Shown: positions 11,701-51,708 of the stretch, piece by piece
Position numbering within the stretch: position 1 is the stretch's first letter
How the letters are laid out: each line of letters begins with the position of its first letter
Origin: an uncultured bacterium
GTDB taxonomy: Bacteria > Patescibacteriota > Dojkabacteria > J137
Reading direction: 5' to 3'
DNA: 64,000 nucleotides
Assembly: GCA_963700155.1 (NCBI GenBank)
Contig: OY969472.1
Span: 598,431 to 662,430, forward strand
The notes under the pieces: model-generated
Database searches by the model: none
Seen by the model: the letters and a program-made list of their open reading frames with translations, nothing else
Told to the model about the DNA's origin: nothing
Program-made: the position numbers and the translations under genes

Positions 11701-11796
11701 GATTATCTTTTCACGTTTATGTTTTGGTGTCTGAATATTAATATTCTGATTTAAATCTGAATAAGTTGTTTCTGTTTTAGCAGGATAAATCTTCAT
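8752..11796 (-). CDS. large polytopic membrane protein with a ~600-aa extracytoplasmic domain
   Basis: 1014 aa. The N-terminal ~430 aa is a ~10-TM domain opening with 'IIDILRGFAVIAMIITH' (acyltransferase_3/DUF1624-like). It is followed by a 'WWDDSFG' motif (cf. WWDYG of STT3/PglB/AglB). The distal domain carries 'TFDWEGWD' and 'HIHMWDD', reminiscent of NodB-type deacetylase motifs. Confidence 0.5.
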   Translation of the reverse strand: MKIYPAKTETTYSDLNQNINIQTPKHKREKIIDILRGFAVIAMIITHVIAITYSGNASSKAVYYIGLFGGIFSFTSFLFISGMAAYYSTFSPEVEEHGSRNARVVRKTGRLIKLLFAYYILATASILVNTSLYSFPPSFSWLNNIISTLFFFIVPVFSEFLIPLFLISLTVLLLPKLYKYLIKNPLFGLFFMSVIYGIGSLISQIDFGSDKLNTLKALLGGQVYSDGALHAFPLFQYFPIFLLGIYLGHFFYNHRSLIHRIRVNIIWLIVFIGLTVTGTLSYLYLRSTLLFPLPDQGRFPPSITFLTLSLSLTLIVLLLFQIFYKVTPKFIKNIFNYFGITAIEALVFSTLLLFGYKYFTTTPENPDGIKHLYFTDILILTFIVLFFSAVFTSIKNYLKKWTLKEKDYNTVWWFFTERSLVSLVFIIIFTVVGASLYQEVFIKPALADTNTVIYRKRLILQEENWWDDSFGIKRLITVKNTSSSLPLFSGSWITLKFDHEKAIGEGTAAMKDGTDLRIIYFDSDKGSYLVLPFLLEKPNTSSTAISFKLIDNLDPGNITTNYFLYYGNEFAEKFSVSKDKYTSTPTSDGISLGDEQIHPVKLSLNRKWFLKNQISTAASTNLIIDANTKGAGITDNSVVTYAIDGTNKSGKLTLKGNSVYEASINLTGLDTGTYSIQVNATDSNNILKINRSQKLSFIYTYPLYVTWTFDWEGWDVSQDNLNAIANIEDTYGIQSTHFFNPRIYVKKQSDQNGTIATISKERADYLTNWIKDRQQNHGDEIGMHIHMWDDMVKEAGVTPRTSPIIQGTYGSDVPSYAYTESELEKIYTWGRNKLIDKGLGSPISFRIGAWMGGENVLTALQNTGFLIDSSGRTGGLVNANVSYSTKLPWNLKDTTYPYLPSKSDINKWEGNLSDRLSIWEFPDNGADSYWFTKEDLIKRFNDNFTNKQAPLDHPQDLVYLTHPHWFVSVDEWKIKALFDDIKQYRYSDDKGPVVFANLETVFSQWDTTKFINGD

Positions 11797-11918: not shown

Positions 11919-11952
11919 CTTATAATCTCTTCGCAATATTAATAATTTTTGT

Positions 11953-12024
11953 TCCGGCTTAGCTCAGCGGTAGAGCGCTCGCCTGTTAAGCGATTGGTCG
12001 CTGGTTCGAATCCAGCAGCCGGAG
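11953..12024 (+). tRNA. tRNA-Asn (anticodon GUU)
   Basis: Manually folded cloverleaf. The acceptor TCCGGCT pairs with AGCCGGA. The D-arm is GCTC/GAGC. The anticodon stem is CTCGC/GCGAT with loop CTGTTAA. The T-arm is GCTGG-TTCGAAT-CCAGC. The discriminator is G, and CCA is not encoded. Confidence 0.85.
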
Positions 12025-12046
12025 ATTTAAATTCTTCAATTTAGAA

Positions 12047-12379
12047 ATGATTGTATTTAAAGAAGAGATTGGTACTTCAGATGACAATTTGGTAGTAGAT
12101 GTTCCTAATGATCCGACAAGAAGGTCTGGAATTCCTTTTAATGAAACTTTAATCAATCTTTTTAAAGAGTGCGGTGCTTTAAGAAAAGCTGAGATTTTAG
12201 AAAGATTCTTATATGATTTTAGTTGTAACAATACAACAGATATTATAATCAGTATAAGAAGTGGGGATGTTCCTATGGAGTTGCTTTTAGATATTGTAGG
12301 TTTAAAAAGTGCCGGTGGGGATACAATGCCTATTAGTATAGTGGATGCTGCTCAAAACTGCTTAGAGAATTTAGTATAA
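12047..12379 (+). CDS. hypothetical protein (110 aa)
   Basis: ORF downstream of the tRNA; the overlapping minus-strand ORF 11986..12231 runs through the tRNA and is rejected. Confidence 0.3.
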   Translation: MIVFKEEIGTSDDNLVVDVPNDPTRRSGIPFNETLINLFKECGALRKAEILERFLYDFSCNNTTDIIISIRSGDVPMELLLDIVGLKSAGGDTMPISIVDAAQNCLENLV

Positions 12380-12441
12380 TTATTCCTTTATCTTTAATAT
12401 AAATTCAAGTATATTTTTTAATAATCTTTATAAATATTTAA

Positions 12442-12952: not shown

Positions 12953-15163
12953 TTATTCATATCTTAGCGCATCTAAAGCAGAGATCTTTGTAGCTCTAGT
13001 AGCTGGATATAATCCTGTCAAAACGCCTGTTATTCCAGAAATTAATAGAATTATAACTGCACTCGAAATAGGTAGATTTACAAGGTTCAGATATCCATAA
13101 CCTCTTGAAATTGAGATTAAGGAGATTATAAATGATAATAAATTTCCCGCAATAACACCAAATAGTATACCTACAATCCCTCCTAACAACCCCATTGTTA
13201 TAGATTCAGACAAGAACAAGTGTTTTACTTCTTCTGCTCTCATTCCGATAGCCTTCATTAATCCAACTTCTTTTGTCCTTTCTAAGAGTGATACAGTTAG
13301 TGTATTAAACATTCCTAATGCGGCAACAAATAATGCAACAAATCCTACTATGGCAAATACAACTCTAGCATTATCAAAAAAGCCCTGAATTTGTTGAACA
13401 GTATCTAAAATTGCAGTAGTTCTGAATCCAAGTACATTTAACTGTTGTCTCAAAGTATCAACATCAGTTTGATCACTAGTGACTAATCTTACTTGTGAGT
13501 AGTTCTTAATCCCAAGTGATTGTACGTCTTGGATTGGAGCATAAGCTTTTGGTGCGTCATTAGAAGATATTACTCCAACAATAGTATAATCAAAAGATTT
13601 TGGTTCAGATGTCTTATCAGTTTTTTGAGCACTATCAGTTAAAATGTATGAAATTTTTAATGTCTTATTAATCGCATTACCTGAGTTAAGACCTATAACG
13701 TCTAAGAATGACTGATTAACAACAATGCCTTCATTTCCAGAAATTGGATTATCTTCAAACAAATTCCCGGTAGTTATTTTTGATTCAATAGTATTTAAAT
13801 ATGCTGATTGTACGCCATAAACCACAACATCAGCATTAGAATCCTGATAATTAACATTCCCTGCGATACTTATTACAGGATATGTCTGTTCAACATGATC
13901 AAGTCCTTTTAAAGTACCAAGAGCATCTTCATTTATTATTACGCTTTCACCCAAAGACGGATAAACATCTATTTGTTTTAATTGTTCTAGTTCAGCAACT
14001 TGAGATATAACAAGATTTTCTATTCCAAAACCAATTGAAACTAAAAAGGCTGTGAATCCTATACCTAACGCAACTCCCCCTATTGTTATAAGTGCTCTAT
14101 TTCTTTTTGCAAAAAGATTTTTGAAAGAAAGTTCAAATATATCAATATAGCTGATACTTTGTATTTTTGATTTATCAAGAATATCAATAAATTTATCATA
14201 AATCCCAGTTATTAATTTATCTAATGGTTTAAATATAACTGAGATAGAGAATACTTTGTGCAAAATTCTGTAAGTTAAGGACACTATTACTAATATTGTT
14301 GAAAGTATAACAAGTCCAATTGTTGTGAAAATGTTTTTAAAAAAACCAGAATTTTGCTCTCTCTTTCGTTTTGGATTGCTAAGGTTAGAAAGATCGGCTT
14401 TATAAGGTACTGCTGTCCCATCATCAACTTTATTTTCAGTTATCAAAGACTCTTTTATTTCTTTAATGTTATCTTTAGTTATTACTGAATCTCGTACAAT
14501 CTTCCCATCAAAGATATATAGAAATCTTTTGGCGAAATCTAAATTATCAATATTATGAGTAACCATAATTACTGTTTTCCCCTCAATACTTAGTTTTTGA
14601 AGGTATTCGGACAGTTCTTTACCGCTTTTATAATCCAAGTTTCCAGTAGGTTCATCAGCAACAATTATTTGTGGATCTGTAATTAAAGCTCTTGCGAGGG
14701 AAACTTTCTGTTGTTGTCCTGAGGAAAGCTCGCTTGGCAAAAAAGTAGCCCATTCTGAAAGCTCGAATTGTTCAAGCATCTTTAAAGCTTTGGTATTTGC
14801 GTCAATCTTAGAGTAACCTCTTAAAACTAAGGGAAAAGCTACATTTTCTTGTACATTTAATGATTTTATCCAATAAGGTTGTTGATATATTATTCCCACA
14901 TTCTTTTTTCTGAAGTTAGCGAGTTCTTCACTATTTGCATTTGTTATATCAACCCCTGCAAAATTGATTGATCCTTTGGTGGCATCTTCTAATCCTAGCA
15001 GAACGTTAAGAAGTGTTGATTTACCACTTCCCGAAGGTCCAAATATCATTGCAAACTCACCTTGTGAGATTTCGACATTAACGTCTTTTAATACATCGAT
15101 GCTTTTAGGTTTTACATCATACCTTTTGAATATATTTTTTATCTTTATTATCGGATTATTCAT
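12953..15163 (-). CDS. ABC transporter, fused ATP-binding and FtsX-type permease (MacB-like topology)
   Basis: Walker A 'GPSGSGKST', signature 'LSSGQQQKVSLARAL', Walker B 'IVADEPTGNLD' and H-loop 'VTHN' in the first ~230 aa. A TM follows, then a ~300-aa extracytoplasmic domain, then three C-terminal TM helices (FtsX/MacB fold). Confidence 0.8.
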   Translation of the reverse strand: MNNPIIKIKNIFKRYDVKPKSIDVLKDVNVEISQGEFAMIFGPSGSGKSTLLNVLLGLEDATKGSINFAGVDITNANSEELANFRKKNVGIIYQQPYWIKSLNVQENVAFPLVLRGYSKIDANTKALKMLEQFELSEWATFLPSELSSGQQQKVSLARALITDPQIIVADEPTGNLDYKSGKELSEYLQKLSIEGKTVIMVTHNIDNLDFAKRFLYIFDGKIVRDSVITKDNIKEIKESLITENKVDDGTAVPYKADLSNLSNPKRKREQNSGFFKNIFTTIGLVILSTILVIVSLTYRILHKVFSISVIFKPLDKLITGIYDKFIDILDKSKIQSISYIDIFELSFKNLFAKRNRALITIGGVALGIGFTAFLVSIGFGIENLVISQVAELEQLKQIDVYPSLGESVIINEDALGTLKGLDHVEQTYPVISIAGNVNYQDSNADVVVYGVQSAYLNTIESKITTGNLFEDNPISGNEGIVVNQSFLDVIGLNSGNAINKTLKISYILTDSAQKTDKTSEPKSFDYTIVGVISSNDAPKAYAPIQDVQSLGIKNYSQVRLVTSDQTDVDTLRQQLNVLGFRTTAILDTVQQIQGFFDNARVVFAIVGFVALFVAALGMFNTLTVSLLERTKEVGLMKAIGMRAEEVKHLFLSESITMGLLGGIVGILFGVIAGNLLSFIISLISISRGYGYLNLVNLPISSAVIILLISGITGVLTGLYPATRATKISALDALRYE

Positions 15164-15213: not shown

Positions 15214-18200
15214 TTACAAAAAGCTAAAGATGTCTTGTAACCCTTTCAAAACAATATCAAGTGCACTCTCAGATTTCTGAGGTGCAATAGTTACAATATT
15301 ATTAGTTTGCGATTCATTCTTACTACTATCATCAGATACAGCTCTTAAGTGATATACACCGGATGGTTTAAGATTAGAAACAATTACAACATGTTTAAGA
15401 CCTAAAGTTCTATCAATCTGAGTACTTTGACTGTAATCACCAGAAGAACCTTCACCAAATTCTACTTGACTTGTAGCAAGTTCATCAGTGGTCCAAGAAA
15501 CAATAACTTGAGCAGTAGAGTCTTGAGAATCAGGATTAACAGCTTCAACTTTAATGTTAGAGATAGCAGGAGGTCTAGTATCAGTCGCAGTAGTAAATGT
15601 ATGAACATCAGAAGTAGCTTGATTACCAATAGAATCTGTACCTTTTACTACAAGTGAGTACTTAGTATCAGTCGAAAGATTTTCAATAGTTAACTTATGA
15701 TCGGTTTTAGGTTCAATATCGATGACATTTTTAATAAGATCTGGATTATCAGCAGGATAGAATGAAACAATTGATGATATCTCAGTATTAGAAGACCAAG
15801 AGACATCAACAGTAGGTTGGGCAACATTCTTAACTTCTTGAATTTGTATATTACTTACAGTTGGTCTTGGTAATGTAGTTAGGTCTAAAATGGTACCTTG
15901 ATACTCGAATCCTTCAACATCTGTTGGATTAATTTTAAAGTAATATTTAGTTCCGTCATCTAAATTACTTAAAAGAGCAGTGTAAGAACTTTCAATAAAT
16001 GCAGTGTCAATAGTTTTCAATCCTCCAAAATCAGTTGATTTTCCATAATATACTTTTACAGATTTAGCATTAGTAACTGTAAAATTGATTAATGCTGAAT
16101 CAATTCCAACATTAGATGCATTTGCATTCTTAACTGTTGGTGCAGGATCTGTGGAGAAAGTTTTCTCTTCACTGATACCTGTATTCCCATCTTCATCAGT
16201 CCATTTAGCTCTGTAGTAGTAAGTTGTTCCAGCCGACAGATTATCAAGAGTAACAGTATGAGCAGTAACTTGAGCAGAAACAGCACTTTCAGCTTCAAGA
16301 TAATCATTAGATGAAAGTCCTATTTGAATTTTAGAGTCAGATCTTCTGTCTGTTACCCATGAGATAACTGCTTTTCTTGTAGTAGTAGCATTAACAGTAG
16401 GACCGGAGATTAAATCAGCAGGACTAGTATATTTACCTGTAGGATATTTAGTAACAGTACTAGAAACAGCAGAGCAATTGTTTGCAGAGTCACATGCTTT
16501 TATGCAGTAATAGTAATCTTGTTGTGATAGTCCTGTATCAATATATGATGTTCCTAATACTGTACTGATTTTTGAGAAGTCTCCAAAACTGACACTACAA
16601 GAAGCACTGGTAGTAGTAGATCTATATACATCGTAATTAGAAACTCCTGCACCAACATTAGAAGGAGTGGTCCAAGTTAAAGCTAATTTCCAATCAGAAG
16701 TATCTTTATTAGAGATATCAGCAACATCAGGGTTCAAAGGAATACCAGGTGCTTGTCCGGAATAGGTAAATGTAATAGATGTATATGTACTGTAATTGAT
16801 ATTCCCAGCCTCATCTTTAGCAACTACATAGAAAGTATTAGTGTCAGGTTGATTAGCGAATGCGTCTGCTGATAAACTTGTTACACCTGCGCTAGTATAT
16901 GTACAAGTGTTTACGCTAGGTAAGGTATTAATTGTATAGCAGTATGTTAGGTTGCTAACACTACCAGTAAAAGTTCCTGGAGGATCCCAGTCAAAAGCAT
17001 AAGAATTAGTAGTATTATCACTTGGTGTAACACTTAAGTTTTGTGGTTCACTAGGTGCATTAGTGTTAATTTTTAGTACTCCTGAGATACTTGATGTAGA
17101 AATATTCCCAGCTAAGTCTAATGTTCTAAAGTAAATGATGTTGTTACCATCAGAAAGGTTAGGATAATCATAAGTAGGATCAGTAGTATAGGTGCCGTCA
17201 TTAACAAGTCGGTCAGTTAAATCTTGATTACCATTATGTAAATCTCCATACCATGTACCTCCACTTCCAATTCTGTATTGTAAACCTGCTAAACCGGCAC
17301 CAACATCAGTAGCTTCATTACCTCCAGTTGTTGGCCAAGTGATAGTGGCATCTTTAGTAGAGATAAAGTTAGATGGCATAGAGATAAAGTCAGGGTTCTC
17401 TGGAGGTGTATTATCAAATTTGAATGAAATTAAATCCTGGTAAAGATTAGAAGCACCACTCCAAATATTACCGGTAACATCAACAGCTTTGATAGAGAAG
17501 TAGTATTGTTTACCTGTTGTTAGAGTCAATCCAGAGATACTACTTAAGTCAACGTGATCCCCTGTAGCAATGTAATCACAATAACTTTCACTTACACCAT
17601 CATCAAGACCATGGAGGATACCTCCACTAGTAGCAGGGTTAACACTGCTAGAGTTACCAGGAGTAGCTTCGTCAAGTGAAATACAATATCCTAACAACCC
17701 ACTTCCACCAACATTGTCGTTACCTTCGGTCCAGTTAATTTGAGGTTTAGACTTGACCCAGTCACCGTCATTAACTCCTGAGATATTAATACTTGTGGCA
17801 TTTTGTGTTGGTAAGGTTGTATCATAAGTTAAGTCTAAAGATACATCTGAAAGAACAGGAGTATTCTGTCCACCAGAACTTAGGAATGATTTAAATGCAA
17901 AATATTTACTAGAAGGACTAAAGCTAGAGATATTAGTGTTAATATCAGAAGCAATATTGGAATTAGCACTTGAACTAGCGTTACTCCAAGCAGCACCATC
18001 CCAGTATTTCCAAGTATTATTTGAATTACAATTAGAAACAGTATCACCACATATTTGATAATATATCTCACTTCCTGCAGGTTTAGTAGAAGTAGTAGTA
18101 CAGTTACTACTACCATCTAAAGTACCTTCACAGAAGTGATCAATCGATTGTGGCCTAGATGTTAGATCTAAAGAGTTAGTAGAACTAACTGATGGTTTAT

Positions 18201-18440
18201 CAACAGGATAATTTTGATAAGTAAATGTATTACTTGATATTTTAGGTAAGTAACTAGAATTATCAGTTTCAAGAATAGTTTTGTATTGAAAATATTGATT
18301 ATTAGAAACGTTACTTAAAGCAAAAGTAGGTAAGTCAGTAGAAGTATTATTAGCATCAGAATAATATGTATTGGAAGTCCCATCAGGACCGATAAATGAC
18401 TCTCCAGAGCAAGCATTATCATCACATGATCTAACCTGGT
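15214..18440. repeat. ~3.2-kb near-identical direct repeat, copy 1 (3' two-thirds of paralogue A)
   Basis: Nucleotide stretches from 15214 to ~18440 are almost identical to 20217 to ~23445. The encoded proteins run from 'KYQVRSCDDNACSGESFIGPDG...' to the C-terminus with only scattered substitutions. Confidence 0.8.
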
Positions 18441-20196
18441 ATTTTACATTTTGGAGACCTCTTTTATAAATAGTATTAATTTCAGTTGGAGAAAGACTTT
18501 TATTGAAGATAGAGAATTCGTCCATAAATCCTTTAAATTTAGATGATGGACTGCCTGAGTATAGTGCTCCAATTTCCATTTTATTTTGTGTTATTGATCC
18601 AAAGGTGGTAGAAACTGTTGAAGCTGCAACACCATTTACATATGTAGTTAAATTATTCCCATTACGAACTCCTACTACATAATACCATTTTCCTGCTTCA
18701 ATAATATTGGAGTAAGTTGATCCTACTATATGACTAGCATCATCTCTAACTAAAAACGTTATGTCATTATTACCTGTAGCGAATTGAAATAATACGGCTG
18801 AACCGGCTGTAGTAGTTCGATAAGCACCGATCGTGTATGAAACAGACACTGAGTCTACATTTATCCAAGCTGATACAGAATAATTTGTTCCCAGAGTTGT
18901 TCCAGGGTAGGGATCATTAAGTTCAATATAGCTATTGCCATCAAAGTATTCTGAGTAACTACCTAATTTATAGACTAAATTAGAAAATTGGGATGAGCCT
19001 ACAATAGTACCATTTTTGCTATTGCCACTTGAATCATTTGCATTCCCGTCAAAGTGCCAAAGCCCCTGATTGTTCGACATATCAACATTATCTGTACTAT
19101 ATTGAGTTTCAATTCCTTTATTATCTGGCAAATTCTTCCCGTAAGGAGCATTTGGTAACCAATTAATATTTTGCCAAGTTGTCCCATCAGAAACAGATGT
19201 ATCAAAAACTTTTGAAGTATATTCCCCATACAGACCTGCACCTTTTTCATAATTTGTTTTAATTTCACTTGCAGACAAGGCAGTAGAGTATATCGTTGTA
19301 TCGTCTAGAGCTCCGACAAAATATCCATGCCCCCCAGAAGGATCAATAGAAATACTTTTCCAATTAAAATATCGTAAGTTACCAGATGAAGATCCATTCT
19401 TAATATACTCACCATTTAGATATAGTGATATTGTATTATTATTATTGACAACGGTAACAAAATTCCATCCAGAAAGAGTAGTGCTATAAACTAAATTATA
19501 AGGCATTAACCCAGATTTTTGCTCACATAATGTAATCCCATTAGTCCCAACATTGATTCCTAATCCGGTTCCACCTGTAACATAGTGGGGATAGAATATA
19601 GTTCTATTAGATGTTAAATTTGAAAAGCATTCAACCCCACTTCCACTTTGAGATCCAAGATGAGTAGTTGATTCAGGTTTAACCCATGTACTTATTGTAA
19701 ATGTTGTACTACTAATTTCCCCATCAGGAACATCTACATAACTAGTGTTGTCAAAATGTCCAGCTGTTCCTATCTGTCCTGTTGTAAATATTGCTCCATA
19801 AGATGTACCATTATAATTACCTAATTCATCATTCCAGTTATTCTCAAATCTCCACTGTGCAACAACCCCCGGATCGTTTGAAGGGGTAGAAGCTGGTGTA
19901 TTACTTAAAGTTAAATTACCAGAAGAATATTGAGTATTATTGTATGTACCTAAATCATATTTAGCTTGAGAATCATCAGTAATATCAGTTTGAACTTGTT
20001 TTAAAGAAGCTTCACCTCCAGTTACTTGAATCTTATTGGAATCAGATAAAGTATAGTCTGAAGGTGTAGAAAAATCCCAGGTGAAGCTGGTTGATGCAAA
20101 TAATTTAGTACCTATAAAAATTATAGGTATGCTAACCAGAACAATAATAATAAAGACTTCTTTTTTTTCAATTTTCTTAATTCTAAATTTTTTCAT
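15214..20196 (-). CDS. giant surface protein, paralogue A (1660 aa): signal anchor, LamG/ConA-like lectin modules, Cys-rich linkers, multiple Fn3/PKD-like domains
   Basis: N-terminus 'MKKFRIKKIEKKEVFIIIVLVSIPIIF' with one TM. The conserved module 'FASTSFTWDFSTPSDYTLSDSNKIQVTGGEASLKQVQT' follows. Two LamG-like modules are present (e.g. 'NYSVSAWINVDSV...YVVGVRNGNNLTTYVNG'). Repeated ~95-aa beta modules such as 'TSPADLISGPTVNATTTRKAVISWVTDRRSDSKIQIGL...TTYYYRAKWTDEDGNTG' follow. The C-terminus is 'ALDIVLKGLQDIFSFL'. Confidence 0.7.
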   Translation of the reverse strand: MKKFRIKKIEKKEVFIIIVLVSIPIIFIGTKLFASTSFTWDFSTPSDYTLSDSNKIQVTGGEASLKQVQTDITDDSQAKYDLGTYNNTQYSSGNLTLSNTPASTPSNDPGVVAQWRFENNWNDELGNYNGTSYGAIFTTGQIGTAGHFDNTSYVDVPDGEISSTTFTISTWVKPESTTHLGSQSGSGVECFSNLTSNRTIFYPHYVTGGTGLGINVGTNGITLCEQKSGLMPYNLVYSTTLSGWNFVTVVNNNNTISLYLNGEYIKNGSSSGNLRYFNWKSISIDPSGGHGYFVGALDDTTIYSTALSASEIKTNYEKGAGLYGEYTSKVFDTSVSDGTTWQNINWLPNAPYGKNLPDNKGIETQYSTDNVDMSNNQGLWHFDGNANDSSGNSKNGTIVGSSQFSNLVYKLGSYSEYFDGNSYIELNDPYPGTTLGTNYSVSAWINVDSVSVSYTIGAYRTTTAGSAVLFQFATGNNDITFLVRDDASHIVGSTYSNIIEAGKWYYVVGVRNGNNLTTYVNGVAASTVSTTFGSITQNKMEIGALYSGSPSSKFKGFMDEFSIFNKSLSPTEINTIYKRGLQNVKYQVRSCDDNACSGESFIGPDGTSNTYYSDANNTSTDLPTFALSNVSNNQYFQYKTILETDNSSYLPKISSNTFTYQNYPVDKPSVSSTNSLDLTSRPQSIDHFCEGTLDGSSNCTTTSTKPAGSEIYYQICGDTVSNCNSNNTWKYWDGAAWSNASSSANSNIASDINTNISSFSPSSKYFAFKSFLSSGGQNTPVLSDVSLDLTYDTTLPTQNATSINISGVNDGDWVKSKPQINWTEGNDNVGGSGLLGYCISLDEATPGNSSSVNPATSGGILHGLDDGVSESYCDYIATGDHVDLSSISGLTLTTGKQYYFSIKAVDVTGNIWSGASNLYQDLISFKFDNTPPENPDFISMPSNFISTKDATITWPTTGGNEATDVGAGLAGLQYRIGSGGTWYGDLHNGNQDLTDRLVNDGTYTTDPTYDYPNLSDGNNIIYFRTLDLAGNISTSSISGVLKINTNAPSEPQNLSVTPSDNTTNSYAFDWDPPGTFTGSVSNLTYCYTINTLPSVNTCTYTSAGVTSLSADAFANQPDTNTFYVVAKDEAGNINYSTYTSITFTYSGQAPGIPLNPDVADISNKDTSDWKLALTWTTPSNVGAGVSNYDVYRSTTTSASCSVSFGDFSKISTVLGTSYIDTGLSQQDYYYCIKACDSANNCSAVSSTVTKYPTGKYTSPADLISGPTVNATTTRKAVISWVTDRRSDSKIQIGLSSNDYLEAESAVSAQVTAHTVTLDNLSAGTTYYYRAKWTDEDGNTGISEEKTFSTDPAPTVKNANASNVGIDSALINFTVTNAKSVKVYYGKSTDFGGLKTIDTAFIESSYTALLSNLDDGTKYYFKINPTDVEGFEYQGTILDLTTLPRPTVSNIQIQEVKNVAQPTVDVSWSSNTEISSIVSFYPADNPDLIKNVIDIEPKTDHKLTIENLSTDTKYSLVVKGTDSIGNQATSDVHTFTTATDTRPPAISNIKVEAVNPDSQDSTAQVIVSWTTDELATSQVEFGEGSSGDYSQSTQIDRTLGLKHVVIVSNLKPSGVYHLRAVSDDSSKNESQTNNIVTIAPQKSESALDIVLKGLQDIFSFL

Positions 20197-20216: not shown

Positions 20217-23200
20217 TTACAAAAAGCTAAAGATATCTTGTAAACCTTTCAATACAATATCGAGTGCACTCTCAGATTTCTGAGGAGCGATAGTTACAAT
20301 ATTATTAGTTTGCGATTCATTTTTACTACTATCATCAGATACAGCTCTTAAGTGATAAACACCAGATGGTTTAAGATTAGAAACAATAACAACATGTTTA
20401 AGACCTAAAGTTCTATCAACTTGAGTACTTTGACTGTAATCACCAGAAGAACCTTCACCAAATTCAACTTGACTTGTAGCAAGTTCATCAGTAGTCCAAG
20501 AAACAATAACTTGAGCAGTAGAATCTTGAGAATCAGGATTAACAGCTTCAACTTTAATGTTAGAGATAGCAGGAGGTCTAGTATCAGTAGCAGTAGTAAA
20601 TGTATGAACATCAGAAGTAGCTTGATTACCAATAGAATCTGTCCCTTTAACTACTAAGGAATATTTAGTATCTGCTAAGAGACTAGTAACTTCAAGTTTA
20701 TGCTCGGTTTTAGGTTCAATATCGATAACATTTTTAACAAGATCAGGCTGATCAACAGGATAGAATGAAACAATTGATGATATCTCAGTATTAGAAGACC
20801 AAGAGACATCAACAGTAGGTTGAGCTACATTCTTAACTTCTTGAATTTGTATATTACTTACAGTAGGTCTTGGTAATGTAGTTAAGTCTAAAATAGTCCC
20901 TTGATATTCGAATCCTTCAACATCTGTTGGATTAATTTTAAAGTAATATTTAGTGCCGTCATCTAAGTTAGTCAATAATGTAGTATATGAGCTTTCGATA
21001 AATGCAGTGTCAATTGTCTTTAATCCTCCAAAATCTGTTGATTTCCCATAATATACTTTTACAGATTTAGCATTAGTAACTGTAAAATTGATTAATGCTG
21101 AATCAATTCCAACATTAGATGCATTTGCATTCTTAACTGTTGGTGCAGGATCAGTTGAGAAAGTTTTCTCTTCACTAATACCTGTATTCCCATCTTCATC
21201 AGTCCATTTAGCTCTGTAGTAGTAAGTTGTTCCAGCAGATAAATTATCAAGAGTAACAGTATGAGCAGTAACTTGAGCAGAAACAGCACTTTCAGCTTCA
21301 AGATAATCATTAGATGCAAGTCCTATTTGAATTTTAGAGTCAGATCTTCTGTCTGTTACCCAAGAGATAACTGCTTTTCTTGTGGTAGTAGCATTAACAG
21401 TAGGACCGGAGATTAAATCAGCAGGACTGGTATATTTACCTGTAGGATATTTAGTAACAGTACTAGAAACAGCTGAGCAATTGTTAGCAGAGTCACATGC
21501 TTTGACACAATAGTAATAGTCTTGTTGGATAAGTCCAGTATCAATATATGAGGTACCTAATACTGTACTGATCTTGGAGAAGTCTCCAAAACTGGCACTA
21601 CAAGAAGCACTAGAAGTAGTAGATCTGTAAACATCATAACTAGAAACTCCAGCACCAACATTACTTGGAGTAGTCCAAGTTAAAGCTAATTTCCAATCAG
21701 AAGTATCTTTATTCGAAATATCAGCAACATCAGGATTCAATGGAATACCTGGTGCTTCTCCAGAATAGGTAAAAGTAATAGATGTATAGGTACTGTAATT
21801 AATATTTCCGGCTTCATCTTTAGCGACTACATAGAAAGTATTAGTATCAGGTTGATTAGCAAATGCATCTGCTGAAAGTGAGGTTACTCCTGCAGATAGT
21901 ATACGTGCAAGTAGTGCTACTAGGTAGAGTATTAATTGTATAACAGTATGTTAAGTTCCTAACACTACCGGTAAAAGTTCCAGGAGGATCCCAGTCAAAA
22001 GCATAAGAATTAGTAGTATTATCACTTGGTGTAACACTTAAGTTTTGTGGTTCACTAGGTGCATTAGTATTAATCTTTAAAACTCCACTAATACTTGATG
22101 TAGAAATATTCCCAGCTAAGTCTAATGTTCTAAAGTAAATGATGTTGTTACCATCAGAAAGGTTAGGATAATCATAAGTAGGATCAGTAGTATAGGTGCC
22201 GTCATTAACAAGTCGGTCAGTTAAATCTTGATTACCATTATGTAAATCTCCATACCATGTACCTCCACTGATCCAATTTTGTACTGCAATCCAGCTAAAC
22301 CAGCTCCAACATCAGTAGCTTCATTACCTCCGGTTGTTGGCCAAGTGATAGTAGCATCTTTAGTAGAGATAAAGTTAGATGGCATTGAGATAAAGTCAGG
22401 GTTCTCTGGAGGTGTATTATCAAATTTGAATGAAATTAAATCCTGGTAAAGATTAGAAGCACCACTCCAAATATTACCGGTAACATCAACAGCTTTGATA
22501 GAGAAGTAGTATTGTTTACCTGTTGTTAGAGTCAAACCAGAGATACTACTTAAGTCAACGTGATCACCAGTAGCAATGTAGTCACAATAACTTTCAGTAA
22601 CACCATCATCTAAACCATGGAGAATTCCACCACTAGTAGCAGGGTTAACACTGTTAGAGTTACCAGGAGTAGATTCATCAAGTGAAATACAATAACCTAA
22701 CAAACCACTTCCTCCAACATTATCATTACCTTCAGTCCAATTAATTTGAGGTTTAGACTTAATCCAATCACCATCATTAACTCCAGAGATATTAATGCTA
22801 GTAGCATTCTGTGTTGGTAAAGTTGTGTCGTATGTTAAGTCTAAAGATACATCTGTCAGAACAGGAGTATTCTGACCACTAGAACTTAAGAATGATTTAA
22901 ATGCAAAATATTTACTAGAAGGACTAAAGCTAGAGATATTAGTGTTAATATCAGAAGCAATATTAGAATTAGCACTTGAACTAGCATTACTCCAAGCAGC
23001 ACCATCCCAATACTTCCAGGTATTATTACTATCACAATTAGAGACAGTATCACCACAAATTTGATAATATATCTCACTTCCAGCAGGTTTAGTAGAAGTC
23101 GTAGTACAGTTACTACTACCATCTAAAGTACCTTCACAGAAGTGATCAATAGATTGTGGTCTTGATGTTAAATCTAAAGAGTTAGTAGAACTAACTGATG

Positions 23201-23445
23201 GTTTATCAACAGGATAATTTTGATAAGTAAAAGTATTACTTGAAATTTTAGGTAAGTAACTAGAATTATCAGTTTCAAGAATAGTTTTGTATTGAAAATA
23301 TTGATTATTAGAAACGTTACTTAAGGCGAAAGTTGGTAAATCAGTAGATGTATTATTAGCATCAGAGTAGTAAGTATTAGAGGTTCCATCAGGTCCGATG
23401 AAGGATTCACCTGAACAAGCATTGTCATCACAAGAACGTACCTGA
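20217..23445. repeat. ~3.2-kb near-identical direct repeat, copy 2 (3' two-thirds of paralogue B)
   Basis: See copy 1. Identity extends through the conserved C-terminus 'ALDIVLKGLQDIFSFL'. Confidence 0.8.
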
Positions 23446-25157
23446 TATTTTACATCATTTATTCCACGTTTGTATAAGGAGCCCACTTCAGAATTAGTTA
23501 AGACATGGTTAAAAATTGCTAATTCATCCATTCCACCAGTCCAGTACTGTGAATTACCTCCTCCTAAAGACATAGTTTGTATTGCCGGAGCAGTCAGTGC
23601 GGTAGTGTTAGTTCCTAGCTTGGTACCATTTTCATAGATGTTATAAACATCATTATTAAAATCCCAATCGATAGCAACATGAATCCAGGTATTTGCGGCA
23701 AATGCAATAGGGCCAGTTATTGCTCTATAGTTCAAATTAATATAAGAATAAAATCCTGAAGCAACACTATAAGATAATTGTATACCAGAAGTTGTTGTTC
23801 CCCACTGAAAAATAGGGTTATATGTTGTTGGTGGAGAGCTTGAGTTAAAACTTGGTTTCAACCATACACTTAATGTTCCTGTATTAACATTAAATCCTGT
23901 ATTTCCTAAAGTTATATAATCACCACTCCCATCAAAATAAGCACCATTACTACCAAATTTTGCAGTCGATGATGGTGTTGAATTCCCGGATGGACTTGCT
24001 GTATTATTTTGTCCACTAGAATCATTCCAATTTCCATTAAAATGCCAAAGTCCAATATTTCCACTCATATCTACATTATCTTCAGAATATTGTGTTTCAG
24101 CAGCTGCATTATTTGGAAGTTCTTTCCCATAGGGAGAATTTGGTACCCAATTAACATTTTGCCAAGTAACCCCATCTGTTATCGAAGTATTGAAAACTTT
24201 TGAAGAATACTCACCATAATGTCCAACATTTTTAAGGTAATTTTCCTTAATTTGTGTATCTGTTAATACAGTATTATATACAATTACTTCGTCTGCTGAT
24301 CCTGCTGTCCCATGTGCACCTGAAAGACTTCCTATTGCAAAAGGTGCGTTATTTGTTACTCCATTACTTATTACATCAGTATCTTCGAGGTTACCATCAA
24401 AATATAATTTCTGTGTATTTGTTGCCGCATTAAATGTACATATAACATAATGCCAATTCCCGTCAGTGATTGTAGATGTTGATGTTGAATATGCATCTGG
24501 GGCATAACAACTAACCTTATTTGCTGTAGGATAATTTGTTGTAATGAAAGAACCATTTGGACTACCAGCTAAGTGCTTTGAAATAGGGATACCTTGAGTT
24601 GTTATCGTGGTTTTTATCCAGCCACCATATGATCTATCATAATCTCCAAACTCAATTTGTGAATATTCCGGGATTGTAACGTAGTTTGTTCCAGAGAAGG
24701 AAAGTGCATTTCCTACTTTACCTGTTGTCCATGTAGGTGAACCAACAAGTGTCCCGTTATGCCCCAATCCGCTAGAATCACTTGCAGTGGTTCCTGACCC
24801 ATCGTCTAGTTTCCAAAACCCTACTAAGCCACTATCAGGCGCAGTTATATGCTGAGATGTATTTCCTAATGTTAAATTACCAGAAGAATAAAGTGTGTTT
24901 GAATATGTACCTAAATCAAATTCAGATTGAGAGTTATCAGTGATATTAGTTTGAACTTGTTTTAAAGAAGCTTCACCTCCAGTAACTTGAATCTTATTAC
25001 TGTCCGATAAAGTGTAATCAGATGGAGTAGAGAAATCCCAAGTGAAGCTAGTGGATGCAAAAAGTTTAGCAGTAATAAAAATTATTGGAATACTTATTAA
25101 AATTACTATGATTAATATTTCTTTTTTTTGAATTTTTCTAGATTTAAATCTTTTCAT
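20217..25157 (-). pseudogene. giant surface protein, paralogue B; reading frame broken by two single-nucleotide insertions (near 22275 and 21905), splitting it into 22221..25157, a middle piece, and 20217..21740
   Basis: Piece 22221..25157 (978 aa) has the same N-terminal module as A but different LamG cassettes. Piece 20217..21740 (507 aa) is ~97% identical to the C-terminus of A. In between, B has 'ggatcagtggagg' where A has 'ggaagtggagg', and 'gcagatagtatac' where A has 'gcgctagtatat'. Each is a 1-nt insertion that shifts the frame, and a TAA follows in the shifted frame. Confidence 0.6.
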
Positions 25158-25169: not shown

Positions 25170-28100
25170 TTACAAAAAGCTGAAAATATCTTGCAAACCT
25201 CTTAAGACAATATCTAATGCATTCTCGGATCTCTGAGGAGTAATAGTAACAATATTATTGCTTAAGGTTTCGTTTTTGCTACCATCTTCTGAAACTGCTT
25301 CTAAGTGATATACACTTGATGGTTTCAGGTTTGAGATAATGACTACATGCTTTAAGCTCAAACTTCTATCAATTTGAGTCCCTTGAGCGAAGGAACCTCC
25401 GGTTCCTTCGCCATAAAGAACTTGACTTGTTGCTAGCTCATCTGTAGTCCAAGACACTACAATTTGAGCAGTAGAATCTTGAGAATCAGGATTCACAGCT
25501 TCAATTTTTATATTAGAAATTTCTGGTGGTCTTGTATCTGTTGCTGTAGTAAAAGTATGAACTTCTGAAGTCGCTTCATTGCCGATAGCATCTGTACCTT
25601 TAACAACAAGTGAGTATTTAGTGTCGGCATTTAAAGTTGCAACCTCAAGCTTGTGATCAGTTTTCAAATCAAGATCAATAACATTTTTTACAAGGTCAGG
25701 ATTATCAGCTGGATAGAATGAAACAATAGATGATATATCTGTATTTGATGACCAGGTTACATCAATTGTAGGTTGAGCAACATTCTTAACTTCTTGAATT
25801 TGTATATTACTTACAGTTGGTCTAGGAAGAGTAGTGAAATCCAGAACAGTTCCTTGATATTCTGTACCTTCTGTGTCGGTTGGATTAATTTTGAAATAAT
25901 ATTTCACACCATCAGTTAACTCTGTTAATACAGCAGTATAAGAACTTTCAATAAATGCAGTATCTAGTTCCTGTACTGCTCCAAATCCTGTAGTTTTACC
26001 ATAATATATTTTTACTAAGTTAGCATTATTACTTGTAAATTTAATTAAAGCTGAATCAATTCCAACGTTTGTAACTTTAACATTTGTAATAACAGGAGGT
26101 GGATCGGTAGTGAATGATTTTTCTCCACTTGTGCCAGTATTTCCATCTTCATCAGTCCACTTGACTATATAGTAATATGTAGTACCAGCCTTAAGATTAT
26201 TGAGTGTTACTGTATGTGCAGTGACCTGAGCGGAAATACCGACTTCTTCTTCAAAGTAATCACCAGAGGATAAACCATATTGAATTTTAGAGTCGGATCT
26301 TCTATCTGTTACCCACGAGATAACTCCCTTTGTAGTAGTTTTTGCATTTAATGAAGGGCCTGAGATCAGATCGGCAGGACTAGTATATTTCCCTGTAGGA
26401 TATTTAGTAACTGTACTGGATACTGCAGAACAGTTGTTAGCAGAGTCACATGCCTTCACACAATAGTAATAGTCCTGTTGGCTAAGTCCTGAATCAACAT
26501 AAGATGTTCCTAATACTGTACTAACTTTATTAAAGTCACCAAAATCAGAACTACAAGAAGCACTAGCAGTTGTAGATCTATATACATCATAATTAGAAAC
26601 TCCAGCTCCAACATTACTTGGGGTAGACCAAGTTACAGCTAATTTCCATTCTGAAGTATCCTTATTGGAGATATCTGCAACATCGGGATTTAAAGGAATC
26701 CCTGGAGCTTCACCTGAATAAGTAAAGGTAATTGATATATTGGTACTATAATTAATATTCCCAGCTTCGTCTTTAGCAACAACATAGAAAGTATTGGTGT
26801 CAGGCTGGTTAGCAAATGCATCGGCTGATAAACTTGTTACACCCGCACTAGTATATGTACAAGTAGTTGAGCTTGGCAAGGTGTTAACAGTATAACAATA
26901 TGTTATCGCTGAAACACTTCCTGTGTAAGTTGCCGGAGGATCCCAATCAAATGCGTATGAGTTGGCGGTGTTATCAGAAGGTGTTACACTTAAGTTTTGT
27001 GGTTCACTAGGAGCAGTTGTATTGACTTTTAATAAACCATTTACCGTTGAACTGGAAACATTTCCTGCAAGGTCCAATGTTCTGAAATATATAATATTGT
27101 TTCCATCAGATAGGTTAGGGTAATCATAAGTGGGGTCAGTAGTATATGTACCATCATTAACAAGAAGATCCATTAAATCTTCACTCCCAGTATGTAAATC
27201 TCCATACCATGTACCTCCAGAACCAATCTTATATTGTAATCCATCTAAACCAGCACCAACATCGTTAGCAGCATTACTATCACCAACAGGCCAAGTAATA
27301 GTTGCGTCTTTAGTAGAGATAAAGTTAGACGGCATAGAGATAAATGTAGGATTAGTAGGAGGGGTATTGTCATATCTAAATGATATTAAATCTTGATAAT
27401 CTCCTGATGATCCACTCCAAATATTACCGACGACATCAACAGCTTTAATAGAGAAGTAGTATTGTTTACCTGTTGTTAAAGTAAGTCCTGGAATACTACT
27501 AAGGTCAACATGATCTCCTGTAGCAATAAAGTCACAATAAGTGTCTGTTACTCCATCATCAAGACCATGAAGAATGCCAGCACTAGTAGCAGGGTTAATA
27601 CTACTGGAGTTATCAGGTTCAGCTTCATCTAAGGCAATGCAATATCCAAGGATTCCACTTCCATTAACATTATCATCACCTTCAGTCCAGTTGATTGTTG
27701 GTTTAGATTTGACCCAGTCACCATCATTTACATCTGAAATATTTATACTGGTGGCATTCTGTATAGGTGCAGTTGTATCATAAGTTACATCAAGTGACAC
27801 ATCAGAGAGTACTGGTGTATTTTGACCACCGGAGCTTAAGAAAGATTTAAATGAAAAGAACTTACTAGAAGGACGAAAGATAGAAATATTAGTATTAATT
27901 GTACTTGCAGTATTAGAGTTAGAACTTGAGCTTGCATTGCTCCAAGCAGCACCATCCCAATACTTCCAAGTATTATTAGAATTACAATTAGAAACAGTAT
28001 CGCTACATACTTGATAATATAGTTCGGTATTTGTAGGCTTAGTAGAAGTAGTAGTACAGTTACTACTTCCATCTAAAGTACCTTCACAGAAATGATCGAT

Positions 28101-29591
28101 AGATTGAGGTCTGTATGTTAAATCCATAGAAGTAGTAGGATTAACTGTTGGTTTATCAACAGGATAATTCTGATAAGTAAATGTATTACTAGAAATTTTT
28201 GGTAAATAACTTGCATTACCACTTTCTAGAGTAGCTTTATATTGAAAGTATTGATTACGGGTTAAAGATGATATATCGAAAGTGGCAGGTGAATTTGTCG
28301 TGTTATGGATTTCATCATAGTAACTACTTGAAGTTCCATCAGGACCAATAAAACTTTCGCCAGAACATGCATTATCATCGCATGATCTAATCTGGTATTT
28401 TACATTTTGAATTCCACGTTTATAAATATTAAGAATTTCAGTGTCCGATAAAATTCTGTTCCAAACAGCCACATCTTCAATTTGACCCTTGAAGTTGTTT
28501 AAGTAAGCATGAGAATATTGATTGTATACAGTACCTATAAGAAAACTAGAATAATATGCATTTAAAGTCTCAGTTCTTGAATTCTCTAGTTGTCCGTTTA
28601 CATATATATATCCATATCCTGTTGTACCATTACGGACACCAGTTATTAAGTACCAAACACCTGGTGTTAATGTGGTAGTTGACACAACTGAAGATCCATT
28701 ACTGCAGCCTGAAGGAAGTATGTCCATCCCAGCTTTACCAGTACTTCCTATGTTTATACCATATCCATACCAACAACTTATTGAGTCTGCTGCTTCCTTG
28801 CCTGCTATTGCCATAGTAGTCCCAATTTGTGTAATTTTTACCCATGCAGAAATAGTAAAGGTACTTATTCCTAATGACCCTCCATCACTTACTGTTCCAT
28901 AGTCACCGTTGCCATCTAGGTCTAATACCTTAGTTGGCCTATCTGAGTTTACAAATGCAGCATTCCCGCTGAGAGTTACCGAATGATTGTATCCGCTTGA
29001 ATCACTTGTATTATTCATATGCCATAAGCCAAGATTCCCGGTCATATCGATATTACCAGTTGAGTATCCTGATTCAGTTGCATGATTATTAGGCAATTCT
29101 TTTCCATAAGGTAACTCTGCACTCCAATTAAAGTTTTGCCACGCTACGCCATCTATGGCTGATGTGTCATATATTTTTGAGGTATAACTTCCTGATAGTG
29201 ACAAACTATCCAAGGTTAAATGCCCAGAAGAGTATTGAGTATTATTATATGTTCCTAAATCGAATTCAGATTGTGAATCATCAGTTGTATTTGTCTGTAT
29301 TTGTTGTAAAGATACATTTCCACCTGTGATTTGCATCTTGTTGCTGTCAGATAATGTGTAATCCGAAGGAGTAGAAAAATTCCATGAAAAACTAGTAGAG
29401 GCAAATAATTTTATATAAATTACAGGAATAATTAAGATAGCTATAAAAATAACAGTCAAAACGACATATGCTTTCCTGACCTTGTTTAAAGGATTTTTTT
29501 TGCCTAAATTTGTATGTAACATCTTCTTTAACATAATATATAGGTTTCCCCTATAAATCAACATAGATAATAAGGATAAATGAAAAATCAA
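25170..29591 (-). CDS. giant surface protein, paralogue C (1473 aa as listed; the true start is probably the internal Met near 29531)
   Basis: Same architecture as A and B but ~75-80% identical. It has the N-terminal 'LFASTSFSWNFSTPSDYTLSDSNKMQITGG' module, a LamG-like module, the 'KYQIRSCDDNACSGESFIGPDG' Cys linker, Fn3-like repeats and the C-terminus 'ALDIVLRGLQDIFSFL'. Confidence 0.7.
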   Translation of the reverse strand: MIFHLSLLSMLIYRGNLYIMLKKMLHTNLGKKNPLNKVRKAYVVLTVIFIAILIIPVIYIKLFASTSFSWNFSTPSDYTLSDSNKMQITGGNVSLQQIQTNTTDDSQSEFDLGTYNNTQYSSGHLTLDSLSLSGSYTSKIYDTSAIDGVAWQNFNWSAELPYGKELPNNHATESGYSTGNIDMTGNLGLWHMNNTSDSSGYNHSVTLSGNAAFVNSDRPTKVLDLDGNGDYGTVSDGGSLGISTFTISAWVKITQIGTTMAIAGKEAADSISCWYGYGINIGSTGKAGMDILPSGCSNGSSVVSTTTLTPGVWYLITGVRNGTTGYGYIYVNGQLENSRTETLNAYYSSFLIGTVYNQYSHAYLNNFKGQIEDVAVWNRILSDTEILNIYKRGIQNVKYQIRSCDDNACSGESFIGPDGTSSSYYDEIHNTTNSPATFDISSLTRNQYFQYKATLESGNASYLPKISSNTFTYQNYPVDKPTVNPTTSMDLTYRPQSIDHFCEGTLDGSSNCTTTSTKPTNTELYYQVCSDTVSNCNSNNTWKYWDGAAWSNASSSSNSNTASTINTNISIFRPSSKFFSFKSFLSSGGQNTPVLSDVSLDVTYDTTAPIQNATSINISDVNDGDWVKSKPTINWTEGDDNVNGSGILGYCIALDEAEPDNSSSINPATSAGILHGLDDGVTDTYCDFIATGDHVDLSSIPGLTLTTGKQYYFSIKAVDVVGNIWSGSSGDYQDLISFRYDNTPPTNPTFISMPSNFISTKDATITWPVGDSNAANDVGAGLDGLQYKIGSGGTWYGDLHTGSEDLMDLLVNDGTYTTDPTYDYPNLSDGNNIIYFRTLDLAGNVSSSTVNGLLKVNTTAPSEPQNLSVTPSDNTANSYAFDWDPPATYTGSVSAITYCYTVNTLPSSTTCTYTSAGVTSLSADAFANQPDTNTFYVVAKDEAGNINYSTNISITFTYSGEAPGIPLNPDVADISNKDTSEWKLAVTWSTPSNVGAGVSNYDVYRSTTASASCSSDFGDFNKVSTVLGTSYVDSGLSQQDYYYCVKACDSANNCSAVSSTVTKYPTGKYTSPADLISGPSLNAKTTTKGVISWVTDRRSDSKIQYGLSSGDYFEEEVGISAQVTAHTVTLNNLKAGTTYYYIVKWTDEDGNTGTSGEKSFTTDPPPVITNVKVTNVGIDSALIKFTSNNANLVKIYYGKTTGFGAVQELDTAFIESSYTAVLTELTDGVKYYFKINPTDTEGTEYQGTVLDFTTLPRPTVSNIQIQEVKNVAQPTIDVTWSSNTDISSIVSFYPADNPDLVKNVIDLDLKTDHKLEVATLNADTKYSLVVKGTDAIGNEATSEVHTFTTATDTRPPEISNIKIEAVNPDSQDSTAQIVVSWTTDELATSQVLYGEGTGGSFAQGTQIDRSLSLKHVVIISNLKPSSVYHLEAVSEDGSKNETLSNNIVTITPQRSENALDIVLRGLQDIFSFL

Positions 29592-29747: not shown

Positions 29748-30386
29748 ATGTCAAAATTTTTAACTTCAAAACAAAGAATAGTTTTAGATGCTCTTTCATC
29801 TTATCTTGAAGAAAATGGCGAGGCGCCAACCTTGGCTGAACTTCAAGAAATCCTTGGAATAAAAACTAAGAGAGGCGTTGCAAAACACCTAGAAGCTTTA
29901 GAAAGAAAAGGCTTTATTTATCGAAGTGGGAAATCTAGAGGAATTATGTTAGAAAATAGCCTTAATTCGGAAATGTATGATGTCCCAATTTTAGGGTATG
30001 CAAATGCAGGTCAGCCTTTAGTTTTTGCCGAAGAAGATATAGTTGGATCAATTAAAGTTGACAAAGATATTATTAAAAACAAAAAAAATATTTTTGCTCT
30101 TGTTGTAAAAGGTGATTCCATGAATATGAGAACTATTAATAAAGTCCCAATTGTAGATAAGAATTTTATCTTAGTTCAAAAAGAGAGCTCTTATGATAAT
30201 GGAGATGTTGTACTTGCAGTAATAGATAATGCAGCAACAGTAAAAACATTTAAAAGAAGTGATAATTCAGTAATACTTTATCCTGAATCAAATAATCCTG
30301 TTCATACTCCAATTTATTTAAGAGATGATGTTCATGGATTTATTAATGGGAAAGTAATTGCTGTTTTAGAAAATCCATCAAATTAA
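29748..30386 (+). CDS. lexA: LexA-like SOS repressor (S24 peptidase family)
   Basis: N-terminal winged HTH 'PTLAELQEILGIKTKRGVAKHLEALERKGFIYR', a linker, and the C-terminal S24 domain with 'VVKGDSMNM' (catalytic Ser) and a downstream Lys in 'ATVKTFKR'. Confidence 0.85.
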   Translation: MSKFLTSKQRIVLDALSSYLEENGEAPTLAELQEILGIKTKRGVAKHLEALERKGFIYRSGKSRGIMLENSLNSEMYDVPILGYANAGQPLVFAEEDIVGSIKVDKDIIKNKKNIFALVVKGDSMNMRTINKVPIVDKNFILVQKESSYDNGDVVLAVIDNAATVKTFKRSDNSVILYPESNNPVHTPIYLRDDVHGFINGKVIAVLENPSN

Positions 30387-48882: not shown

Positions 48883-48908
48883 CAATTTTAGTTATTAAAA
48901 ATGCATAC

Positions 48909-50106: not shown

Positions 50107-50123
50107 ATTAGTTTATTTATATT

Positions 50124-50663: not shown

Positions 50664-50694
50664 ATAATAATTAATCCTTAAATATTAATATAAA

Positions 50695-51162: not shown

Positions 51163-51242
51163 TTAAATTATAAAGTAATAACTTGATTTCATCTTTATAT
51201 TGTGTTTTAATGATGAAAATTAATATATGTTAGTTTAAAAAA

Positions 51243-51674: not shown

Positions 51675-51708
51675 TAAATACTTAAAAGTAGATTTTAAAA
51701 GGTAAGAA

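Follow-up and report, generated by a model that had tools for sequence, protein, structure and literature searches.

The closest described relatives of the proteins considered here are giant LamG/Fn3 proteins of Patescibacteria (candidate phyla radiation, CPR), which are annotated as "LamG-like jellyroll fold domain-containing protein", "DUF2341 domain-containing protein", or "fibronectin type III domain-containing protein". A parallel in mode of evolution is offered by Helicobacter pylori babA and babB, outer-surface adhesin paralogues that undergo concerted evolution by gene conversion and whose on/off switching uses dinucleotide repeats. Here, we describe a locus in a 64,000-nucleotide (nt) stretch of DNA from an uncultured bacterium of the Dojkabacteria (assembly GCA_963700155.1, contig OY969472.1, positions 598,431 to 662,430; hereafter the window), in which three tandem paralogues lie on the minus strand, namely C (25170..29591), B (20217..25157), and A (15214..20196; all coordinates are those of the window). 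The tandem arrangement and the open reading frames (ORFs) of a broken middle copy B, which the original prediction had described, were confirmed. The frame of B is broken, as assembled, by two small insertions in the part that it shares with A and C. We lean towards the view that these breaks are a consensus or polishing artefact of the metagenome assembly and that the real gene has an intact frame of ~1645 amino acids (aa). On this view, the locus is an ordinary tandem family under concerted evolution with a frame break that is probably not biological.

Two insertions on serine codons break the frame of B

The conserved part of the alignment of A, B, and C contains exactly two gaps, which are the sole indels in 1031 aligned codons of the three genes despite a synonymous divergence (dS) of ~1 or more between A and C. 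Break 1 is an insertion of 2 nt ("TC" on the coding strand) at 22271-22270 of the minus strand, where B reads ATT-GGA-TC-AGT-GGA, A reads ATT-GGA-AGT-GGA, and C reads ATT-GGT-TCT-GGA. Break 2 is an insertion of 1 nt ("A") at 21897 of the minus strand (the alignment is ambiguous over 21894-21897), where B reads ACT-A-TCT-GCA, A reads ACT-AGC-GCA, and C reads ACT-AGT-GCG. These sizes and positions (+2 at 22270-22271 and +1 at 21897) replace the two 1-nt insertions near 22275 and 21905 that had been proposed. The breaks are separated by 374 nt in a gene of 4.9 kb. As assembled, the junctions read GCAGTACAAAATTGGATCAGTGGAGGTACATGG at break 1 and CTTGCACGTATACTATCTGCAGGAGTAACCTCAC at break 2; the in-frame alternatives are AAAATTGGATCAGGAGGTACATGG (TCA) or AAAATTGGAAGTGGAGGTACATGG (AGT) at break 1 and CTTGCACGTATACTTCTGCAGGAGTAACCTCAC at break 2.

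The insertions sum to +3, so that the 978-aa and 507-aa ORFs of B, which the original prediction had listed as two of three separate pieces, are indeed present but share one frame (25157-21740 = 3417 = 3 x 1139), and only the ~124 codons between the breaks are shifted. This out-of-frame segment (21898..22269, minus strand) is open in the shifted frame and there encodes a sequence nearly identical to the A protein; read in the upstream frame, it contains 6 stops, the first of which is the premature TAA at 22223-22221, 48 nt past break 1, as had been predicted. The 5' ORF of B (22221..25157, minus strand; 978 aa, identical to database protein P0004) ends at this TAA and covers the putative signal anchor, both LamG_3 stretches, and the beginning of the conserved stalk, its final 17 residues being out of frame. 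The 3' remainder (20217..21896, minus strand) comprises 559 codons in the original frame, carries Fn3/Pur_ac_phosph_N domains, and is under purifying selection to judge from its substitutions. The homologous frame resumes at 21896 and not at the TTG at 21740 from which the listed 507-aa ORF starts (20217..21740; identical to P0042), and the stalk remainder has no start codon ahead of this TTG and no signal. If the breaks are real, B would yield at most the 978-aa head fragment. Removing the TC and the A from B restores a single 1645-aa ORF with no internal stop.

Serine codons, unlike those of any other amino acid, fall into two disjoint sets, TCN and AGY (PMC6872785). Both breaks fall on serine codons, and the inserted bases partly recreate the codon of the other family. 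At break 1, TCAGT equals TCA and AGT overlapped at their common A, and C carries TCT where A carries AGT; at break 2, ATCT equals AGC and TCT aligned at their common C with the leading A of the first codon kept. Switches of this kind are rare, since 5 of the 130 columns that are serine in both A and B (within the 1031 codons) change between the TCN and AGY families, and break 2 is among the five. Neither insertion duplicates an adjacent base or sits in a repeat (GGA[TC]AGTGGA and TATACT[A]TCTGCA). The insertions thus look as if they were templated by a second, near-identical sequence with the other serine codon rather than random, a merged-codon reading that was made post hoc. The two sites differ in their surroundings: break 1 adjoins the longest tract that is identical between A and B, with a B-specific AAA codon at ~22280-22278 just upstream, and break 2 lies in the densest patch of B-unique substitutions (~21860-21960).

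B is constrained like an intact gene

The ratio of non-synonymous to synonymous divergence (dN/dS, Nei-Gojobori) between A and B is 0.03 upstream of break 1, 0.10 between the breaks, and 0.087 downstream. When changes downstream of break 1 were assigned to lineages with C as the outgroup, the synonymous to non-synonymous counts were 43:16 for B and 49:16 for A (Fisher P=0.84). No further stop or indel was found in B across its 4.9 kb, and B has its own ATG, a putative signal anchor, and a complete variable head. Because dN/dS is low, the changes on the B lineage match those of the intact A, and no other lesion is present, we see no decay; to judge from its sequence, B is a normal gene, maintained by selection, in a tandem family of three. 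The decaying cassette donor that the original prediction had offered as one of two explanations is at odds with these figures and with the complete 5' end. The frame break would be instantaneous on the evolutionary scale of these sequences. At present, neither "pseudogene" nor "cassette" is a suitable annotation for B, since its sequence has the properties of a working gene.

The stalks of A and B are patchily homogenized

The original prediction had put the identity of A and B at more than 95% over a repeat that ended at ~18440 in A and ~23445 in B. Identity over these coordinates is lower, at 92.1% (2976/3230 alignment columns), and that over the codon-aligned conserved 3093 nt is 92.6% at the DNA level and 97.0% at the protein level, with 228 mismatches. 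The ~3.1-3.2-kb repeat itself is real, but homogenization of the DNA begins at a sharp boundary at ~18318 in A and ~23324 in B; from there to ~18440/23445, the A and B proteins are identical although the DNA is only 80-87% identical. Within the homogenized 3' tract (15214..18318 on the A side with partner 20217..23324 in B, minus strand), the pattern is that of a mosaic, in which 25 blocks of shared 31-mers occur, identity per 200 nt ranges from 86% to 98%, and the 228 mismatches are clustered. The longest exact A/B tract (22091..22269 in B and 17087..17265 in A, minus strand) is 179 nt long in the raw sequence and 186 nt without the TC. A permutation test on the frame-corrected codon alignment gave a mean longest run of 76-78 nt, which the 186-nt run exceeds with P = 2e-4 (5e-5 with codon position considered). 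We read this tract as a putative recent gene-conversion tract.

The 5' parts are very different. Over the N-terminal ~1.9 kb, A and B share only 40-80% DNA identity with many indels; the variable heads are 40-60% identical, and a single 36-nt block is shared there. The A/B dS exceeds 1 or cannot be computed in codon columns 0-700, after which it falls to 0.14-0.58 (about 0.3 in the 3' 3.1 kb), whereas the A-C and B-C dS stays at ~0.6-1.9 along the whole alignment. C is 78% identical to A and to B in the conserved part at the DNA level (81-82% at the protein level), and BLASTP aligned C to A with 72% identity over 81% of A; the lesser similarity of C, put at ~75-80% in protein by the original prediction, is thereby confirmed. 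Because the head is saturated, the stalk has a low dS with embedded identical tracts, and the boundary is sharp, gene conversion fits better than a recent duplication, the two processes that had been left side by side. The pattern indicates that A and B are probably old paralogues whose constant part was repeatedly and patchily homogenized by gene conversion, and not products of a recent whole-gene duplication.

The 36-nt identical block lies in the region of the signal anchor (19987-20022 in A and 24948-24983 in B). Together with the 3' tract, it flanks the LamG heads, so the geometry would permit head swapping by recombination. No head swapping between the copies was seen; apart from the 36-nt block, A and B have tracts in common only in the constant 3' part.

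Origin of the frame breaks

If the breaks arose as an artefact of consensus calling or polishing, two templates, nearly identical but with entirely different serine codons (TCA versus AGT at break 1, TCT versus AGC at break 2), would have been merged out of register. Reads of a second B allele or of A would be aligned over the three-base difference as a paired insertion and deletion, of which a column-wise consensus or a polisher would then accept one and reject the other; the merged product would partly keep both alternatives, that is to say, TCAGT at break 1 and ATCT at break 2. Such merging at three-base differences is a familiar failure of consensus calling, and faithful gene conversion rarely creates indels, two still less. 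Break 1 lies beside the longest identical tract, so that reads or strands of A and B would be interchangeable there. We infer that the indels of B more likely than not have an in silico origin.

Contigs of the Logan assembly of run ERR11571143, an independent k=31 assembly, match the window over 9.4 kb with no indels; contig L023 has 1 mismatch in 6144 nt, and contig L024 has 5 mismatches in 3224 nt. The five single-nucleotide polymorphisms (SNPs) of L024 are clustered in 180 nt at 12211-12391 and occur nowhere else in its 3.2 kb, which looks like a strain-level recombination patch. The cluster implies that the source population is heterogeneous and not clonal, and we count it in favour of an artefact. 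It lies within an ORF (12047..12379) beside a tRNA-Asn gene (11952..12025). L024 ends at 15316, exactly the last position that a unique 31-mer covers ahead of the 31-mers common to A and B, and because this end matches a k=31 simulation, the Logan contigs behave as k=31 unitigs. The unitigs predicted over the breaks span 22240..22383 and 21684..22012, and look-ups of their predicted partial products found no record, a negative that speaks neither for nor against the breaks in view of the following control. In a control with the 33-aa tail of A, L024 was the only contig recovered, and not the predicted 327-nt contig with the identical tail of B, so short repeat unitigs are unindexed. No other broken gene was found in the window, and those candidate split pairs that match Pfam do so over the full length of the families. 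The rest of the window being clean, the fault would be specific to the repeat.

Several points weigh against an artefact. The 9.4 kb matched without an indel and the clean remainder of the window argue for a consensus that is good in general. A pure, unpolished de Bruijn assembly of short reads cannot invent junctions, so that under this method the indels would be real. The other serine-family switches between A and B (columns 795, 1108, 1177, and 1249) were assembled cleanly, even at column 1108, where identical tracts on both sides should make cross-mapping most likely. Break 2 is in the B-unique patch, where reads of A should not be mis-mapped, and a second B allele must therefore be postulated. 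The merged-codon reading is, moreover, post hoc.

Most of these points suit a genuine and very young lesion, made in the cell by gene conversion between the paralogues and breaking B in one event, which we take seriously as an alternative while judging it unlikely. In a heteroduplex of the A and B stalks, serine codons would be paired out of register (TCA-- / --AGT), and loop repair would keep the bases of both strands. Such an origin would account for two non-duplicative indels at serine family-switch codons and for the position of break 1 exactly at the edge of the longest conversion-like tract; it agrees with the lack of indel problems elsewhere, including the 9.4 kb matched by an independent k-mer assembly, and with the clean state of the other serine-switch sites in B, one of them between two identical tracts, and the missing decay is compatible with a very recent event. 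Homologous conversion, however, normally proceeds in register, and on general grounds two retentions of misaligned loops per event would be rare; break 2 lies inside the B-unique patch and not at the edge of a tract identical to A; and scans of genome contigs and JGI metagenomes found no sister strain that would show inheritance. That both insertions are real footprints of a single conversion event, in which TCN/AGY differences were paired out of register, seems to us a little more doubtful still. If it were true, concerted evolution of tandem paralogues could by itself inactivate one of the copies, with a preference for sites at which the serine codon family switches, and would provide a templated, site-predictable route to pseudogenes.

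We consider it improbable that B is an ordinary pseudogene made by two independent random insertions, perhaps retained to donate sequence to A and C. In favour of this are the disrupted frame with its premature TAA and the copy number among relatives (1, 1, and 2), which suggests that a redundant copy could be lost; yet constraint on the B lineage is not relaxed, and two hits 374 nt apart on rare serine-switch codons would occur by chance at ~(6/1031)^2, a count made post hoc. A donor is further contradicted by the complete 5' end of B, which, in contrast to silent cassettes, has a start codon and a putative signal anchor, and by breaks that lie in the conserved stalk and not in the variable part that a donor would supply. 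A decaying pseudogene is not supported (in spite of the disrupted frame; dN/dS of 0.03-0.10 and 43:16 versus 49:16), and a silent cassette donor was rejected (B has its ATG, putative signal anchor, and full head, and no moving variable segments were seen). Recoding, with a -1 frameshift at break 1 and a +1 frameshift at break 2, or a phase-variation switch would exploit the fact that +2 and +1 cancel and that no stop interrupts the intervening stretch in the shifted frame, but we give this hardly any credence. Two opposite programmed shifts would be needed in one gene, and no slippery heptamer of the form X_XXY_YYZ exists at AAAATTGGATCAGTGG or at break 2. A, C, and all relatives examined, 20+ homologous loci in the wider family, encode the break region in one frame, and a programmed ribosomal frameshift was rejected on these grounds. 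The break-site serines are both variable loop positions across the wider family, and their ancestral state is not inferable. A phase-variable gene was likewise rejected, as neither break lies in a homopolymer, a simple repeat, or a short tandem repeat. Finally, the original prediction had allowed for A and B being one gene duplicated by mis-assembly of a collapsed or mis-resolved repeat. Only the similarity of A and B itself speaks for this, and we reject it as extremely improbable, given that A and B differ at 228 positions of the conserved 3.1 kb, and given the 40-80% identity and many indels of the N-terminal 1.9 kb, the two tandem copies that are likewise present in a relative (L002, described below), and the end of L024 where the first 31-mer shared by A and B begins, as is expected for two distinct converging copies.

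Layout and products of the locus

The window has a G+C content of 31.8% and a coding fraction of 92%. C is the intact first gene of the array and encodes 1473 aa with a TTG start or 1454 aa with the ATG at 29534 (the latter is database protein P0001); it has one LamG_3 head and an Fn3/Pur_ac_phosph_N stalk. A is intact and encodes 1660 aa, with two LamG_3 stretches between a putative signal anchor and an Fn3-like stalk. Laminin_G_3 matches in the N-terminal halves of the paralogues scored 131.7, 112.4, and 75.3 bits (Pfam gathering cutoff 27.6), with one LamG stretch per head in C and two in both A and B. The stalk domains in the C-terminal halves matched Pfam Pur_ac_phosph_N (47-80 bits; cutoff 30) and fn3 (43-48 bits; cutoff 25). 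By eye, the N-termini of A, B, and C consist of a basic stretch and then a hydrophobic segment of ~20 residues, which we read as a putative signal anchor. No NCBIfam model matched the giant proteins above its cutoff, and their matches to solved structures are limited to a 50-residue LamG stretch. Each paralogue would be exported and anchored by its N-terminus, with the variable LamG head shown on a long Fn3-like stalk; we infer a probable surface, adhesin-like role for the family.

The spacers within the array are 12 and 20 nt, and 50 nt separate the 3' end of A from the gene of a fused ATP-binding cassette (ABC) transporter (12953..15163, minus strand), whose domains are ABC_tran (113.9 bits), MacB_PCD (65.2 bits), and FtsX (58.9 bits; all Pfam). 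The predicted architecture fits the MacB type. Because the score against the NCBIfam MacB equivalog (263.6) is below the cutoff of 966, orthology to MacB is not established. A scan for promoters and terminators, which is weak evidence, gave 81 promoter-like sites (88 expected) and located no terminator-like site within the C-B-A-ABC block. Because the spacers are 12-50 nt and this weak scan showed no terminator-like site in the block, the four genes are probably co-transcribed in the order C, B, A, and ABC transporter from the 156 nt that precede C. The gene of a LexA-like repressor (LexA_DNA_bind and Peptidase_S24; 29748-30386, plus strand) is divergent from the block across the same 156-nt spacer.

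Relatives and database occurrence

P0004 and P0001 are 100% identical to the 978-aa ORF of B and to C, respectively; A and the 507-aa ORF of B are also in the protein collection, and all come from the same single contig of 1,140,724 nt (NCBI/ENA) only. No exact copy of the A protein or of the 978-aa ORF was found in the assembly collections. The nearest homologues, at 38-58% identity, are in metagenome-assembled genomes (MAGs) labelled Dojkabacteria, WWE3, Collierbacteria, "Saccharibacteria", and "Patescibacteria group bacterium BroJett037", which marks the source as a bacterium of the Patescibacteria/CPR type. Literature searches on LamG proteins of Patescibacteria and on serine codon switching yielded no more than background, and none was found on run ERR11571143. 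No sister strain with an orthologous B was found, the best identity being 58% in genome contigs and 43% in JGI metagenomes.

A giant gene followed by a MacB-type ABC gene (ABC_tran, MacB_PCD, and FtsX) also occurs in the relatives L001, L010, and L002, with 1, 1, and 2 copies of the giant gene compared with 3 here. In L002 (1526..9893 of the Dojkabacteria MAG contig DAOMOX010000002.1), the two copies lie in tandem upstream of the ABC gene and are 50-70% identical in protein even in the stalk, without homogenization. Because relatives hold one copy or two diverged copies, the triplication and the similarity of A to B appear to be specific to this lineage. The conserved pairing suggests that the transporter may serve the export, release, or mechanical coupling of the giant protein. 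The locus appears as a lineage-specific expansion, from one copy to three, of a giant LamG/Fn3 protein whose gene is always accompanied by that of a MacB-type ABC transporter in the Patescibacteria-type genomes examined.

Other features of the window

Two large envelope-type genes lie on the minus strand, one encoding 663 aa with three Big_5 Ig-like domains and a Peptidase_C39-like domain (6757-8748) and the other encoding 1014 aa with an acyltransferase-3/HGSNAT-like N-terminal domain (8752-11796). Apart from the gap in B, the window has a single long non-coding gap, which is occupied by a tmRNA gene (34201-34655, plus strand; Rfam RF00023, 53 bits), and the gene of the tmRNA partner SmpB, with a full-length Pfam match, is 25 kb away (59874-60329, plus strand). 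A small protein (48909-49271, plus strand) matches the type IV secretion system pilin family PF18895 over its full length. Its gene is located among large ORFs of the same strand (909, 292, 524, and 591 aa), and this region (46153-55913) is possibly a secretion or pilus cluster.

Implications and comparison with known systems

The 978-aa and 507-aa fragments of B are already public as P0004 and P0042. In the cluster P0042/P0043, the 507-aa fragment is the representative for the intact 1660-aa A; thus, a probable artefact or lesion already affects how the family appears among public protein clusters. That both indels fall on switches of serine codon family is of diagnostic use: it could flag consensus errors at multi-nucleotide polymorphisms or, less likely, a templated mutational mechanism. 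The combination of diverged heads with homogenized stalks is a known pattern and is what diversifying pressure on proteins that bind a host or a substrate would be expected to produce.

Compared with polishing errors at multi-nucleotide polymorphisms, B has small indels in a repeated gene only, at three-base differences and with what looks like a partial union of the alleles, and strain heterogeneity occurs nearby. By contrast, the equivalent serine-switch sites in B are clean.

The silent-cassette systems (Neisseria pilS, Mycoplasma genitalium MgPar, and Borrelia vls) resemble this locus in having tandem, partly identical copies beside an expressed gene, and the variable region of A and B is similarly bordered on both sides by conserved sequence (the 36-nt block and the 3' tract). 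However, B is a complete gene with a start codon and a putative signal anchor and not a promoterless fragment, the constant part is homogenized and the variable part unshuffled, and only three copies are present.

In domain content, A, B, and C correspond to the LamG/Fn3 giant proteins of Patescibacteria, with Pfam Laminin_G_3 and fn3/Pur_ac_phosph_N domains, a putative N-terminal signal anchor, and a downstream MacB-type ABC gene, and on these features we assign them to this uncharacterized group of putative surface proteins. Unlike the relatives, which have one or two diverged copies, this locus has three tandem copies, two of them with a homogenized stalk.

With babA/babB, the A/B pair shares a divergent part that would bind the ligand, a 3' part homogenized by conversion, and a mosaic identity with sharp boundaries. 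The proteins and the organism are unrelated, and neither break in B has a repeat. By analogy, a variable, presumably binding part joined to a conversion-homogenized constant part corresponds to a well-known pattern of adhesin families.

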